Under the pieces are notes generated by a model. That model did no database searches, had not been told where the DNA came from, and was given only the letters and a program-made list of their open reading frames with translations. From NCBI GenBank assembly GCA_964016885.1, contig OZ024752.1, positions 37,696,001 through 37,760,000 of the forward strand: 64,000 bases of DNA, written 5' to 3'. This DNA comes from Eledone cirrhosa (taxonomy: Eukaryota). Positions 23,822 to 41,361 of this stretch are shown piece by piece; position 1 is the stretch's first letter, and every line of letters begins with the position of its first letter. The position numbers and the translations under genes are program-made.

Positions 23822-23939
23822 ATCTGTCCAAGTGTTGAGAAATCGCAGCTCCATGGATGATGACCGCATTTGTGATTTGGAGCAGAAATGCAAAGATGCA
23901 GAGCTGTTTGCTTCTGAAAGCCAGAAAAAATATGATGAG
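23822..23939 (+). CDS. TPM: Tropomyosin alternative exon 4a
   Basis: tag|, 118 nt, open in the correct phase: (R)SVQVLRNRSSMDDDRICDLEQKCKDAELFASESQKKYDE; donor GAG|GTATGT. Confidence 0.88.
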
Positions 23940-24000
23940 GTATGTTGTACTGGCCACTTAGTTTGCATGCACATATTGACACCATTTTTTCCCCATTCAG

Positions 24001-24118
24001 ATCTAAGAAAGCACTAGAGAGCAGAGGTACACACGATTATGACCGAATCTGCCGTCTAGAAGATTTGGCAAGGGAAAATACACAAATTGCCGTTGATGCA
24101 GAACAGAAATACGTCGAG
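24001..24118 (+). CDS. TPM: Tropomyosin alternative exon 4b
   Basis: ttttttccccattcag|, 118 nt: (R)SKKALESRGTHDYDRICRLEDLARENTQIAVDAEQKYVE; donor GAG|GTATGT. Confidence 0.88.
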
Positions 24119-24454
24119 GTATGTTTACGTCAGACGTGTTAAGCACAGTTAATTTAAAAACAGTACGAAAATGATTTAAAGGTGTGAACAAAGAAGCAGA
24201 CGGTTGTTATATATCTATATATTACTTTTTTATATTAATATTTATTTGTTTTTATTTCAGTGTATAAAACAAAGGCTTGTTCATTGTGAAACAAAGTCAC
24301 ATGGTTTTTATTATTATTATTATTATTATTATTAATTGACATATTTCTTTCAGTGTCTCAAATTTTTTTTTTAAATGTCCATGAAGTTGATATGCTGAAA
24401 TTTGGCCTAGTTCATTTCGATTTAACTTTTTATTCTTCCACTGTCCGCTGGCAG

Positions 24455-24572
24455 AGCGCTCAAAGTACTTGAAAACAGGAGTCAAGTTGATGATGAAAGG
24501 ATAGATCAACTTGAGGCTAATCTCAAAGAAGCTAAGTACATAGCTGAAGAAGGTGATCGCAAATATGATGAG
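24455..24572 (+). CDS. TPM: Tropomyosin alternative exon 4c
   Basis: cag|, 118 nt: (R)[39 protein letters not shown]; donor GAG|GTGATT. Confidence 0.93.
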
Positions 24573-24773
24573 GTGATTTTACGCACCAAGTGTATGCATG
24601 CTTTATTCACTAAAGGTCAATTCACTACAGTTGAACTTCATATTATCAACATAATAATATAAATAATGAAGCCACATCCGTTTATAACATAGTTAACCCA
24701 ACTAATACTATCGCCTGCGCTTTCATTGTACCAATTTCTTAACTTATGAGCAATATCTGTTCTGCACCACTAG

Positions 24774-24891
24774 AGGGCGCAAAGTGTTGGAAAACAGGAG
24801 CCAGGGAGATGAAGAACGTATCGACTTACTGGAGAAGCAATTAGAGGAAGCCAAATGGATTGCTGAAGATGCTGATCGGAAATTTGATGAG
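24774..24891 (+). CDS. TPM: Tropomyosin alternative exon 4d (canonical muscle form)
   Basis: tag|, 118 nt: (R)[39 protein letters not shown]; donor GAG|GTGACA. Confidence 0.96.
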
Positions 24892-25419
24892 GTGACAGCT
24901 TGGCGTTTGCTGTGCCAGCCTGATGAATTTGGCAAAGTGTTATGATGCTTTCGGAAAAAAAAATGAGATTTTTGACCCAAATTTGGCATTGCATTGTTTT
25001 TGAAGCCAAAAAGTTTGCTTGGCACTTTTAGAACTCAGATGAAATATGTTTACAGTTCCAATTTCTGCAAAAAAAAATTTTTTTAAATAATAATAAAAAA
25101 AAAAAAGAGAAATGTAATTAGAAGAAAGACTCTAGAAGAAATAATAGTCATTAGTTTTAGTTGTAGTAATTAATGCATGATTTTACAAATGTTTTAAAGG
25201 CATGTTAAATGACCTTGTTCATATTGGTATTTTAATTCAGGATAATGTGTTAAAATGAAGTAGGTAGTTATATAATTTAGTAAATTGTTATCTAACATAG
25301 TGTAACTCAGATACTAATCTATCAGATTAGATGCCTACAGCGTGTTTAGTACTAAACCGTGTTTTGTTAAAATTTGATGTTTTCATTTTGCGTGTGTGTG
25401 TGTTCGTTCATAATTGGAT

Positions 25420-37975: not shown

Positions 37976-38045
37976 GCTGAGAACCGTGCCGCTGAGGCTG
38001 AAAGAACTGTTTCCAAGTTGCAGAAAGAGGTTGACAGACTGGAAG
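37976..38045 (+). CDS. TPM: Tropomyosin exon 8a (canonical)
   Basis: tag|, 70 nt: AENRAAEAERTVSKLQKEVDRLE; donor AAG|GTATTG. Confidence 0.97.
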
Positions 38046-38271
38046 GTATTGTCAAAGACTGTGTGTCTTTGCTTGTGTGTGTTTGGTTGTCCTTGTTGGT
38101 ACAACAGAGCTGCTATTGCTGTTTTAATTTAGAAAAACTTGGCAGCTCTCTATCACAGATAGTCTCAAATAACAGCAGACATTATTGTTGTATTCACTGC
38201 TAACTGCATGTATAAAGTTAAAATGCATGGCTTTGGTTGTCTTATAGATGTGATTCTAATTAATTTATTAG

Positions 38272-38341
38272 GCTGAAAATCGTACAGAATGTGCTGAGCG
38301 CGAATGTAACCTGTTACATAAAGGAAAAGAGGTGTTAGAGG
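38272..38341 (+). CDS. TPM: Tropomyosin alternative exon 8b
   Basis: tag|, 70 nt: AENRTECAERECNLLHKGKEVLE; donor AGG|GTGAGT. Confidence 0.9.
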
Positions 38342-40192
38342 GTGAGTATTGGTGCCATGAAACCCTGACATAATATCTACTATTTTATTCCTTACTTGAA
38401 AAGAAACGCGGCAACACCAGTATTTAAATATAAATTTATTTCAATTAAATTTGCTACGGTGACAAATGAAAATACATTAATTTTATTCTTAAAGATGCTT
38501 TCGAAACAATCAGAGAAAATAATAAACATCTATTAGATAGGTCTGTTGTCAAACATGCTCTTTACAATATTTTGAAAGAGGGATTTTAAAATATATCCAC
38601 AACAATGAACTGTAGTAAAAAGAAATAATAATATGTACAAGTCAGGCAAATGATTACTTGTATATAAGATTTGGCTTTAACTAGCTTTTGTGATGTTTTA
38701 TTGTAATTTCAACAATATTTGTTATATTTTATAGCTAGAAGTTTTATAGTTAAATGAAAAGAATTTTTGAAACGTAGTAAGAAAAGAAAAGAAAAGAAAT
38801 ACATACGCATGTGTTGTGTTAAATATTTCAGTTGTTGTTAGGCATGTTTTGTTTTAGTTGTTGCCTTTTTTGACTTGTGAAGTGAATTTTTATAACATAC
38901 ATTTTTGTAATAAAACAATTGCTGACATTTGTAAAAGCTGATTGCTACTTAACATAGGATTAAAAATTTTTTTAATTTTCCTAATAATTTCAAATATCTT
39001 TTAATATAATCAGTGTTTCTGTTATGGCAGAAACCTTCATTAGACTTTTATGTTATTTGTCAGCTTCTGTTTATTGCATTAATGACATATTGAATTTAGT
39101 TTGTTGATGCCTACTAACATCGACAAATGGGCTACTTTCTGGACAAATGTTAACATGACAGCTTACTAATTGGTCAGCATAGGTTCTGTTTAAACGTTGG
39201 GCATAGGTTATTGGAAATATAATATAACAGTTGTCACTAAAACACTTCTTGATAAGTAGTTTTCTTCAGGTTTCACTGAATAGATTTCTGGTACTTAGAA
39301 TGGTAGGAGACATCTTGGAATTATTATACAAAGTTTGAATAACTCTTCTATCATTTTTCTGTGTTGATTATCAGTTGGGTATGTCTATAAGTTTAGAGAT
39401 CTGATCTACGGACATGTGGTTAGAATGTCTCAGTGAGATGCTGTTTTTGAAAAAGGTTCAAAACTATTTTATGATATGACAATGTCTATGTATTAAAATA
39501 AAATTCCAATTGTATTATGTACAATAACTAGACTGATAGTAATAGTATATTTATATGCAGCGCCTTATTCCTGAATATGTACAAGTGCTCCAGGCTGTAT
39601 TCACACTTAGTCTATCTTTCTTAACAAAGAATGGTATCATATCATTATTGCCACCACAGTTGGACATTCCTGACACAGTCTCTTCACAATTCATGATTTT
39701 GTATTGCTCCTAGCAACTGCTCCTTACTGAATTTTTATATCGTCTGAGAGTTGATCGATGAAGGTTCGAGCAGGTCTTCCACCTCTGCATCTCCCATGAG
39801 GTAGTTACCACAATACTAAACTGTGTATAACTTCCTGCTTACTTCTCCAGTAATGTCCTGCAATTCATAATTGTCTTTGTATATAATGTTAGATATAGGT
39901 GTGTTACAATACACATATTTACCTGAAGGATAATGGCCTGAAAAATTGTCATCTTAATAGCAATAACTTATCTCAAAATACCTCAGAAATATAGACATAA
40001 CTAATTCTAAATAACATAAAATACTATCTATGTAGATTTAGATTGAATTTTTTTTTCCTCAAGCTCAATTTTTAAGTTAAAATTTTAACGGGGTTGGGAC
40101 ATTAATCTCTCTAACTGCTGGCTAAATGGTAAGTTGTCATGTAATATGCATGACTTGCTTTGTGTGATTCCTGACCCATTGGCATGTTCCAG

Positions 40193-40281
40193 GCGATTTG
40201 GAGAAAGAACAGCTGAAGACTAAGAAGCTGCAGGAAGAGATGCAACAGACTTACATGGAGATTCATGAACTTATGCAGTAA
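40193..40281 (+). CDS. TPM: Tropomyosin alternative terminal exon 9a (non-muscle-like C-terminus)
   Basis: Branch-like cctgac then cag|; phase 1: (G)DLEKEQLKTKKLQEEMQQTYMEIHELMQ*; heptad pattern aligns with exon 9b. Confidence 0.9.
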
Positions 40282-41278
40282 GATGCCCAATGTTAGCCAC
40301 CCTTTTCTAATGTTGAGGTAGTATACTAGAACTTTTATAGCTGCCTCCAACTGAAGTTGTCAGGCTTATTATATCACTAATCTCTTGCTTTTCTGTTTTT
40401 TTGTTCCGTCCCTCTTCAATACAGATTGTGTGTGTATGTGTGTGTGAGTATATTCATTTAAGAAATGTGAGGGTTTTGTGCATGTATTGTGAGTTGACTA
40501 AAAAAAAAAAGATTTGGTTTTTTTTTAGTATTAGATTTTAGACAAACTTACTGACACTAAAACAGTTTATACAGAGAAGATTTTAAATATCCAATTGTCT
40601 TGAGATAAGTTATTGTTAATACTTTACAATTTTTTTGGTTTAACTCCTTTAAAGACGAAAAATTAAAAAAATATTTATATCTACATTGTTTCGGTCAATT
40701 TGATCTGATGATCTTTAGGTTTCTTATTCCTAGATTGGTGGATTGTACCAGACTAGGAACCCTTATTTCTAAACTAAGGGTAATAATACTCTTATCCATT
40801 ATTTCACTGACACGTGTACTTCCTTCAGTGGTATAGTGCATAAGTGTTAGTACCTTTAGTTATGAACAGTCTCGTACTATGTCAACACCCAAGGATAAAA
40901 CACCTGAATGCAATCAGAGATCAAAGCAGTGTAGGTGTCAATATTTTTAAAGGTTTCATATTTGAAGATGAGGGTTATAGTTAATTGTAAGAGAAAATAT
41001 TTTTGTTAATTTTTACTTTTGTTTTCTTTATACATTTCTTATAGGTCACATTTATAAAGATCACTTATTAGAATTTTAATGCCTTTCCCGTGGGTGTTGG
41101 TAAAATGGAACTATTCCTAGATAGAGACTAGTTATATTACTGCTTACAGCTACTGATCTCAGTTGTAGACATTAACATGATATAATATGATGTCAAGTCA
41201 TAACTATTTATATTTATATTTTGTTATGTACTTCTATATTAGAACTGATTTAACACTCTACCCATTTAATGTTTTCAG

Positions 41279-41361
41279 ATGAACTGCTTGCTGAAAAGGA
41301 AAGATATAAAGCCATCAGTGATGAGTTGGACCAGACATTTGCAGAACTGGCTGGGTATTAA
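41279..41361 (+). CDS. TPM: Tropomyosin terminal exon 9b (canonical muscle C-terminus)
   Basis: ttttcag|; (D)[26 protein letters not shown]. Confidence 0.97.

Follow-up and report, generated by a model that had tools for sequence, protein, structure and literature searches.

A tropomyosin gene of Eledone cirrhosa with five tandem clusters of alternative exons and a positional Rbfox-type signature beside them

Can one tropomyosin gene serve both muscle and non-muscle actin, and how would one copy of each exchangeable segment be chosen? The question is raised by a stretch of 64,000 nucleotides (nt) of DNA from Eledone cirrhosa, hereafter the window (contig OZ024752.1; G000:C12:37696001-37760000 in our handling of the 3.0-Gb assembly). 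Between positions 23822 and 41361 of its plus strand lie 13 alternative tropomyosin exons in five tandem clusters, with four copies of exon 4, two of exon 5, three of exon 6, and two each of exons 8 and 9; exons are numbered by vertebrate usage. We mapped the exons by reading the sequence and cutting it at the splice sites. Together with a scan described below, this confirmed all 13 exons as an earlier note on this DNA had placed them, including their coordinates, lengths, AG/GT ends, and open frames. The locus offers a compact test of how a single tropomyosin gene can serve muscle and non-muscle actin, with defined swaps that span most of the C-terminal two thirds of the protein, a candidate regulator, and mapped sites.

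The gene is genuine and conserved, represents a known design in unusually full form, and is already present in automatic gene models. New here are the positional Rbfox signature and the matching cluster order across distant animals. The discovery is a modest one, since the principle is published for tropomyosin and the exons are public. The features are listed below in window coordinates unless stated otherwise; "models" refers to 33 Octopus gene models (17 O. vulgaris and 16 O. bimaculoides, all automatic predictions), and percentages are peptide identities.

From 37672566 (contig coordinates, upstream of the window): long-isoform exon 1a; exon 2 at 37673498-37673623
G000:C12:37681833-37682426 (= L018:5833-6426), 14 kb upstream of the window: low-complexity first exon, 198 codons
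5002..5121, plus strand: 40-codon short first exon for isoforms of low molecular weight; O. vulgaris models of 245-247 amino acids (aa) begin with a match to it
18709..18842, plus strand: exon 3, single copy, 134 nt; 93% identity in 33/33 models
23780..23784, plus strand: GCATG, 42 nt upstream of 4a, a candidate Rbfox repressor site
23822..23939, plus strand: exon 4a, divergent, 118 nt, donor GTATGT; 97% in 13/33 models
23940..24000, plus strand: intron 4a-4b, 61 nt, with GCATG and a branch-like TTGAC (its A 40 nt from the donor)
24001..24118, plus strand: exon 4b, divergent, 118 nt, donor GTATGT; 74-77% in 18/33 models
24455..24572, plus strand: exon 4c, conserved type, 118 nt, donor GTGATT, GCATG at +24; 0/33 models, 74% to a Batillaria copy
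24774..24891, plus strand: exon 4d, conserved type, 118 nt, donor GTGACA; 100% in 2/33 models, 90% to Biomphalaria isoform X12
28141..28211, plus strand: exon 5a, conserved, 71 nt; 100% in 20/33 models
28212..28314, plus strand: intron 5a-5b, 103 nt, with a branch-like CTGAC (its A 51 nt from the donor) and then a long pyrimidine tract
28315..28385, plus strand: exon 5b, the most divergent (26% aa identity to 5a), 71 nt; 100% in 13/33 models
31545..31620, plus strand: exon 6a, divergent, 76 nt, GCATG at -39 and -25; 80% in 13/33 models
32119..32194, plus strand: exon 6b, divergent, 76 nt, followed by a 61-nt intron; 100% in 8/33 models
32256..32331, plus strand: exon 6c, conserved, 76 nt, TGCATG downstream at +15 and +57; 100% in 11/33 models
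36045..36107, plus strand: exon 7, single copy, 63 nt, placed by the length and frame scan and by comparison with Octopus models
37976..38045, plus strand: exon 8a, conserved, 70 nt; 100% in 19/33 models
38272..38341, plus strand: exon 8b, divergent, 70 nt, TGCATG upstream at -66 and -47; 96% in 13/33 models
40193..40281, plus strand: last exon 9a, 28 codons and stop, putatively of non-muscle type, GCATG at -45 and -11; 100% in 24/33 models
41279..41361, plus strand: last exon 9b, 26 codons and stop, conserved type; 100% in 8/33 models

Are the copies real? Within the clusters, adjacent homologous exons share length (118 nt for exon 4, 71 for exon 5, 76 for exon 6, and 70 for exon 8, with the single 63-nt exon 7 between) and phase, with valid splice sites, as tandem duplicates do: AG precedes the 13 copies and exon 7, GT follows the internal ones, and the expected phase is free of stops. 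Neighboring copies are 26-69% identical in aa sequence, except for 6a and 6b, which share 8% and are each 40% identical to 6c. For the chance scan, all AG..GT or AG..GC stretches that had precisely the cluster's length and an open frame were scored with BLOSUM62 against the conserved copy, with the minus strand as a control. At 118 nt, 4 of 32 stretches scored 63-199, the next -16, and the best on the minus strand 2. The 76-nt scan set 3 of 65 apart (55-118; next, 17; minus strand, -3), the 70-nt scan 2 of 72 (108 and 39; next, -2; minus strand, 10), and the 63-nt scan 1 of 74 (106; next, 9). Among 75 stretches of 71 nt, exon 5a scored 104 and exon 5b 15, with a minus-strand maximum of 10. Exon 5b is thus inseparable from chance by the scan alone, and it is established by its 100% identical peptide in 13/33 Octopus models. 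The window scan found no further copies at the cluster lengths or at lengths off by 3, 6, or 9 nt. Exon 3 gave one match (18709-18842) both in a tblastn search of the window and in the genome search, and exons 3 and 7 are indeed single-copy, as had been claimed. The tropomyosin family profile PF00261 matched window exons 3, 4c, and 4d above its cut-off (44.7-46.7 bits), and it matched P0013, an orthologous isoform built entirely of divergent copies, with 182 bits over residues 1-241 of 242.

The Octopus models came from an exon 3 protein search in which 695 of 868 candidates passed and 120 were listed, followed by a cluster look-up of 10 Octopus matches among those listed; the sample is skewed to short and low-complexity starts and contains no long muscle isoform. 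Twelve of the 13 alternative exons have orthologues in it, the exception being 4c, which is present in gastropod models only. The copies are used unevenly: 4a in 13 models, 4b in 18, 4c in none, and 4d in 2; 5a in 20 and 5b in 13; 6a in 13, 6b in 8, and 6c in 11; 8a in 19 and 8b in 13; 9a in 24 and 9b in 8, with one model ending after exon 5. Two copies of one cluster never occur in the same predicted model (0/17 in O. vulgaris, 0/16 in O. bimaculoides). The divergent copies 4a, 5b, 6b, 8b, and 9a are 96-100% identical in Octopus, compared with 93% for constitutive exon 3. Hence the proposal of tandem-duplicated tropomyosin exons used one per cluster stands, with the copies intact and strongly conserved, and the stops or indels in octopod orthologues that would have spoken against it are absent from the divergent copies in these models. 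The copies are already annotated in RefSeq and GenBank: LOC106871823 of O. bimaculoides (isoforms to at least X28) and the CAI97216xx models of O. vulgaris hold the same exons, one per cluster. Both sets are automatic, and their clusters, regulation, and tissue use are not described in the papers searched.

Could the divergent copies nevertheless be pseudo-exons, in decay or seldom used, or poison exons whose sole effect is to lower expression? Exon 5b, with 26% identity to 5a, 4/7 apolar core positions, and a near-chance score, looks the part; 4b and 6a are only 74-80% conserved; and exon 7c of Caenorhabditis elegans lev-11 is used about 1/5000 as often as 7b (PMC10512467). We nevertheless regard such decay as very improbable, because length, phase, and open frame are kept in all copies and because 4a, 5b, 6b, 8b, and 9a surpass constitutive exon 3 in conservation.

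The earlier note held that skipping or double inclusion would shift the frame and that each first exon could yield 96 combinations. The first claim is right for single events, but 60 of 180 copy-number patterns restore the frame, for example skipping exons 4 and 5 or exons 5 and 6. The second is right as the nominal product of the clusters. With three first-exon options, namely the short one in the window and the low-complexity and long ones upstream of it, the nominal count becomes 288, and the idea that 96 forms are actually made is unsupported. There was no second exon 2 in the four nearest of 12 upstream stretches or in the start of the window.

What, then, might decide between copies? The hexamer TGCATG has 10 of its 21 intronic sites within 120 nt of alternative exons, a zone comprising 2572 of 21440 nt (12%; p=6e-5). 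This enrichment is strand-specific (reverse complement, 3/11; p=0.14) and holds at widths of 50-300 nt; TGCATG ranks first among hexamers and GCATG first among pentamers. Its placement also differs between the copies. GCATG occurs within 70 nt upstream of 5/7 divergent but 0/6 conserved copies in the window (p=0.016), and the same polarity appears in four metagenome loci with tandem copies (L031, L032, L034, and L072), with 11/13 divergent versus 0/15 conserved copies upstream and 1/13 versus 9/15 within 70 nt downstream. Before 9a, the sites at -45 and -11 in the window correspond to -44 and -13 in L034. GCATG enrichment is not significant in L031 (8/24; p=0.17). Of two other motifs, ACTAAY is not enriched (5/22; p=0.12) and CTAAY is weakly so (11/52; p=0.04). 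A search of the genome with what we take to be the Rbfox RNA recognition motif gave a single match, L101:1501-1529 (G000:C23:24473970), at the end of an exon that we presume on that basis to be of Rbfox type. In worm muscle, Rbfox represses from upstream and activates from downstream (PMC4165533); it represses the non-muscle exon 6a of rat Tpm1 (PMC8419188) and alters last-exon choice in fly Tm1 (PMC8742874). Enrichment and polarity together thus suggest an Rbfox switch between muscle and non-muscle exons.

We therefore favor, as the probable explanation, a single gene with one copy used per cluster, whose exons fall into two biased sets and do not form a freely combined code of 96 forms. In muscle, an Rbfox-type protein binding (T)GCATG would repress the divergent copies and favor the conserved ones. 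Long-promoter transcripts made in muscle would then carry 4c or 4d, 5a, 6c, 8a, and 9b, and cells low in Rbfox, starting from the short or low-complexity first exon, would carry 4a or 4b, 5b, 6a or 6b, 8b, and 9a, partly mixed. Double inclusion would likely be prevented by regulation and by decay of frameshifted messages, possibly assisted at three junctions by short donor-to-branch distances (38-51 nt). By inspection, all 14 intronless long-isoform sequences among 72 metagenome loci have conserved-type exons 5, 6, 8, and 9, and P0162, P0165, P0158, and P0167, with low-complexity or short starts, carry 3-5 divergent segments.

Several observations weigh against this explanation. There is no GCATG within 120 nt of 5b and none downstream of 4d or 9b, 5a and 8a each have one upstream at about -100, and in the window alone the downstream polarity is 2/6 conserved versus 1/7 divergent copies (p=0.44). 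The motif was spotted by eye before it was counted, and p=5e-5 would fail a correction over all hexamers; moreover, close kinship among three of the four other loci makes their GCATG counts non-independent. Exon 4d served as the query that retrieved the 14 intronless sequences, and the 50%-cluster representatives are biased to divergent forms. Exon usage is taken here from predicted gene models. Those models include mixed junctions (5a-6a, 5a-6b, 5b-6c, 8a-9a, and 8b-9b, in both species or in O. vulgaris) and low-complexity starts with 4d, 5a, and 6c, so that coupling is not strict. Finally, Rbfox also acts in neurons, and the axis need not be muscle versus non-muscle.

That last point opens onto an alternative that dispenses with any muscle/non-muscle logic, the switch being set by neuronal Rbfox or other factors or mainly by steric block at short introns, of the alpha-tropomyosin 2/3 type, together with nonsense-mediated decay. 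Of the seven intervening introns, two measure 61 nt, and three have branch-like motifs (predicted branch points) 40, 51, and 38 nt from the donor; the weak CTAAY enrichment points the same way, as does the action of Rbfox on unc-32 in the worm nervous system (PMC4165533). A steric block, however, would cover at most 3/7 neighboring pairs and is silent on which copy is chosen, and the matching introns of L031, L032, L034, and L072 are 246-898 nt long yet retain the motif polarity. We think a switch of this kind unlikely. Less likely still is that the clusters are chosen independently, with most of the 96 (or 288) combinations being produced and serving as a code for actin filaments that differs by cell type. 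This would fit the 17 O. vulgaris models, which contain all junction types between 4a/4b and exon 5 (4/4), exons 5 and 6 (6/6), and exons 8 and 9 (4/4), and the 16 distinct combinations found in each Octopus species, but distant exons cannot be phased in models assembled from short reads. Most clusters are flanked by a single motif of a single polarity. Docker/selector pairing of the Dscam type, with one docking site complementary to a selector ahead of each copy, was not found at exon 4: over four intron segments, just one of the 16 duplexes tested did better than shuffles (4b, 1 of 100), and none was common to the four copies. For lev-11, with comparable clusters, seven isoforms are reported (PMC10512467), and long reads of rat Tpm1 show specific exon linkages (PMC8419188).

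How old is this arrangement? The earlier note had read it as a tropomyosin family nested inside one cephalopod gene. It is no cephalopod peculiarity, as the same clusters in the same order occur in Batillaria, in flatworms, and in the four metagenome loci, and a 118-nt trio is published for lev-11 (PMC4165533). The metagenome loci come from 72 fetched with exon 4d, of which 68 were short, intronless, or single-copy at the thresholds used; L032, L034, and L072 have four exon 4 copies and L031 three within its contig, L031 having in addition two each of exons 5, 6, and 8 and L034 two each of 5, 6, and 9. Their exon 3 is dissimilar to that of molluscs, and our impression is that the hosts are annelid-like. 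We also screened for chimeric gene models, in which neighboring exons are strung together (16 of 145 proteins had repeats, some of them spurious). Batillaria shows three copies of exon 4 and two each of 5 and 6, Hymenolepis repeats of 5, 6, and 8, Paragonimus of 4 and 6, and Echinostoma and Dibothriocephalus of exon 4. Throughout, the order is that of the window, with the divergent copy first at exons 4, 6, and 9 and the conserved copy first at 5 and 8 (Batillaria, 3/3 clusters; Hymenolepis, 3/3; Paragonimus, 2/2; L031, 4/4; L034, 4/4). Exon 4 donor types by position (GTA.GT, GTA.GT, GTGA, GTGA) are common to the window, L032, L034, and L072; two gastropods have the 4c type as well as the 4d type; and P0158 has a 6b-like copy sharing H, T, Q, and Q. 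The exon-cluster layout likely predates cephalopods.

The trees built from these short exons cannot fix the age of the copies. The exon 4 tree, with 45 rows and 39 columns, leaves 22 of its 40 forks open and 4a unplaced, and in it 4b falls among the second-position copies of the metagenome loci only at 83/77 and 61/93. In the tree of concatenated sets (19 rows, 136 columns), the conserved sets group at 91/96, unstarred, and the octopod divergent set has a branch of 2.85. The approximately unbiased (AU) test leaves unrejected a clade of octopod divergent and conserved sets (p=0.49) and a mollusc clade (p=0.16), with another at p=0.23; for the L034 pair, p=0.005 is informative only against its relative L031.

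One ambitious interpretation is that the five-cluster layout and its positional Rbfox code were built once in a mollusc/annelid/flatworm ancestor and kept for more than 500 million years, one gene thus encoding a conserved muscle tropomyosin and a fast-diverging second one; in octopods, that second set would since have become rich in cysteine and almost unchanging, and it might be joined to a low-complexity head of Tm1-I/C type for a role involving little actin. We take this seriously while giving it somewhat less than an even chance. If true, a single origin would overturn the view of independent duplications per lineage, and the locus bears on whether tropomyosin exon duplication in spiralians reflects recurrent convergence or old inheritance. 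The rival account, on which we look a shade more doubtfully, keeps the same working but has cephalopods, gastropods, worms, and flatworms duplicate their exons independently, so that shared order and motifs are convergent. It follows a published model in which tropomyosin exon duplication recurs, and it agrees with the statement that many-exon duplication is independent in most bilaterian lineages (PMC3342872, section 31), with the AU results and the long octopod divergent branch, and with the fact that only 4/72 loci are multi-copy, several long ones (e.g., L038, L050, L063, L070, and L083) being single-copy at our thresholds. It sits poorly with a cluster order that agrees in every cluster seen, with the shared donor types, and with the gastropod and P0158 copies. 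In eight loci (L038, L050, L051, L053, L057, L063, L070, and L083) there is one copy each of exons 3-8 at the thresholds used, with an exon 4 resembling the fourth copy of L032, L034, and L072; these are possibly lineages that replaced exon clusters by gene duplication. Predicted protein P0182 has five exon 4-like segments in a row.

What would the divergent copies do to the protein? In each of the four exon 4 copies, 7-8 of the 11 heptad core positions are apolar. All four also keep a core Asp, which we take to be position 137. The weakest core is that of 5b (4/7 positions apolar). Acidity tends to be lower in the divergent copies of exons 4, 5, and 6, and 4a, 4b, 6b, and 8b contain seven cysteines (four at core positions) versus none in the conserved copies; we speculate that in-register dimers could form disulfides. 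The divergent segments would thus keep the coiled-coil core and alter surface charge, which would alter actin, myosin, or troponin contacts. The product of lev-11 exon 7c binds actin poorly (PMC10512467). By analogy, the divergent copies would change filament binding, and isoforms carrying them may bind F-actin poorly, as LEV-11U does.

Vertebrates spread their tropomyosin diversity over four genes and are not known to duplicate tropomyosin exons 4, 5, or 8. Their TPM1 exons 6a/6b and 9a-d, under RBFOX2 and PTBP1, resemble the present case in muscle/non-muscle choice, linked use, and Rbfox repression of the non-muscle copy (PMC8419188). Closest in design is lev-11, with clusters 4a/b, 5a/b/c, 7a/b/c, and 9a/b (PMC4165533, PMC10512467): a single gene with two promoters, several mutually exclusive clusters, a 118-nt trio with a strongly divergent member, and a divergent exon, 7c, that lowers actin binding. 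The octopod gene differs in having four 118-nt copies, separate exon 5, 6, and 8 clusters, five clusters altogether, and a third, low-complexity first exon. More generally, bilaterian tropomyosin genes combine tandem exon duplicates with alternative promoters, each copy being proposed to belong to one of two isoform types (internal paralogy; Irimia et al. 2010, as summarized in PMC3342872). That review treats the duplications as separate events in each lineage, while in the present comparison distant animals agree in cluster order, donor type, and motif positions.

Drosophila Tm1 offers further likenesses: two exon 4 types, an effect of Rbfox1 on last-exon choice (PMC8742874), and, in Tm1-I/C, a low-complexity first exon joined to exon 3 (PMC5286366). 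The last 25 residues of the Eledone low-complexity exon align with the fly protein in PDB 7bjs (E=0.057, weak) and with many arthropod isoforms, which makes the exon one of Tm1-I/C type. Most of its low-complexity part is not alignable, and its 198 codons have no Pfam match. Intermediate-filament-like polymerization and kinesin and RNA binding are known for the fly protein only (PMC5286366). Close relatives of this first exon occur in Biomphalaria, P0158, P0162, and P0165.

Full-text searches found no paper on cephalopod tropomyosin exon clusters, most subscription papers being beyond their reach; Irimia 2010, Koziol 2011, Vrhovski 2008, and older bivalve papers fall outside this negative and may describe mollusc or flatworm clusters. 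The locus is not described in the accessible sections of PMC8373072, PMC13322953, PMC5167519, or bioRxiv 10.64898/2026.09.05.749416, although supplementary tables of tissue-specific O. bimaculoides exons in the last may include these exons. Protein searches for the divergent forms were sparse. With exon 4b alone, none of 14 candidates reached E<=0.01; 4b does have orthologues, so this blank is a false one. The divergent region of P0013 gave 12 of 122 candidates (11 Octopus proteins and one conserved-type protein), among which there was no isoform from squid, cuttlefish, or Nautilus.

The genome search gave no second tropomyosin gene with introns, as all seven matches among the best candidates scored were this locus. 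Intronless, divergent tropomyosin-like open frames of about 170-247 aa do occur (L002:1495-2277, minus strand, with 72.8 bits to PF00261; L007; L008; and G000:C12 near 6161000), so the tropomyosin family is not confined to one gene. By eye, a large part of the exon 4-6 region is missing from these frames, and a segment resembling exon 2 is repeated in them. Within the window, the intron between the short first exon and exon 3 contains about 4.3 kb of TA/TG-rich simple repeat (about 11400-15770). A 779-codon open frame at 57706-60045 (plus strand) has no Pfam match, its nearest Atlas clusters being DUF229/sulfatase-like at 0.97, and an inverted repeat at 56145-56523, with 187-nt arms that are 99% complementary and 5 nt apart, may be an element or an assembly artifact.

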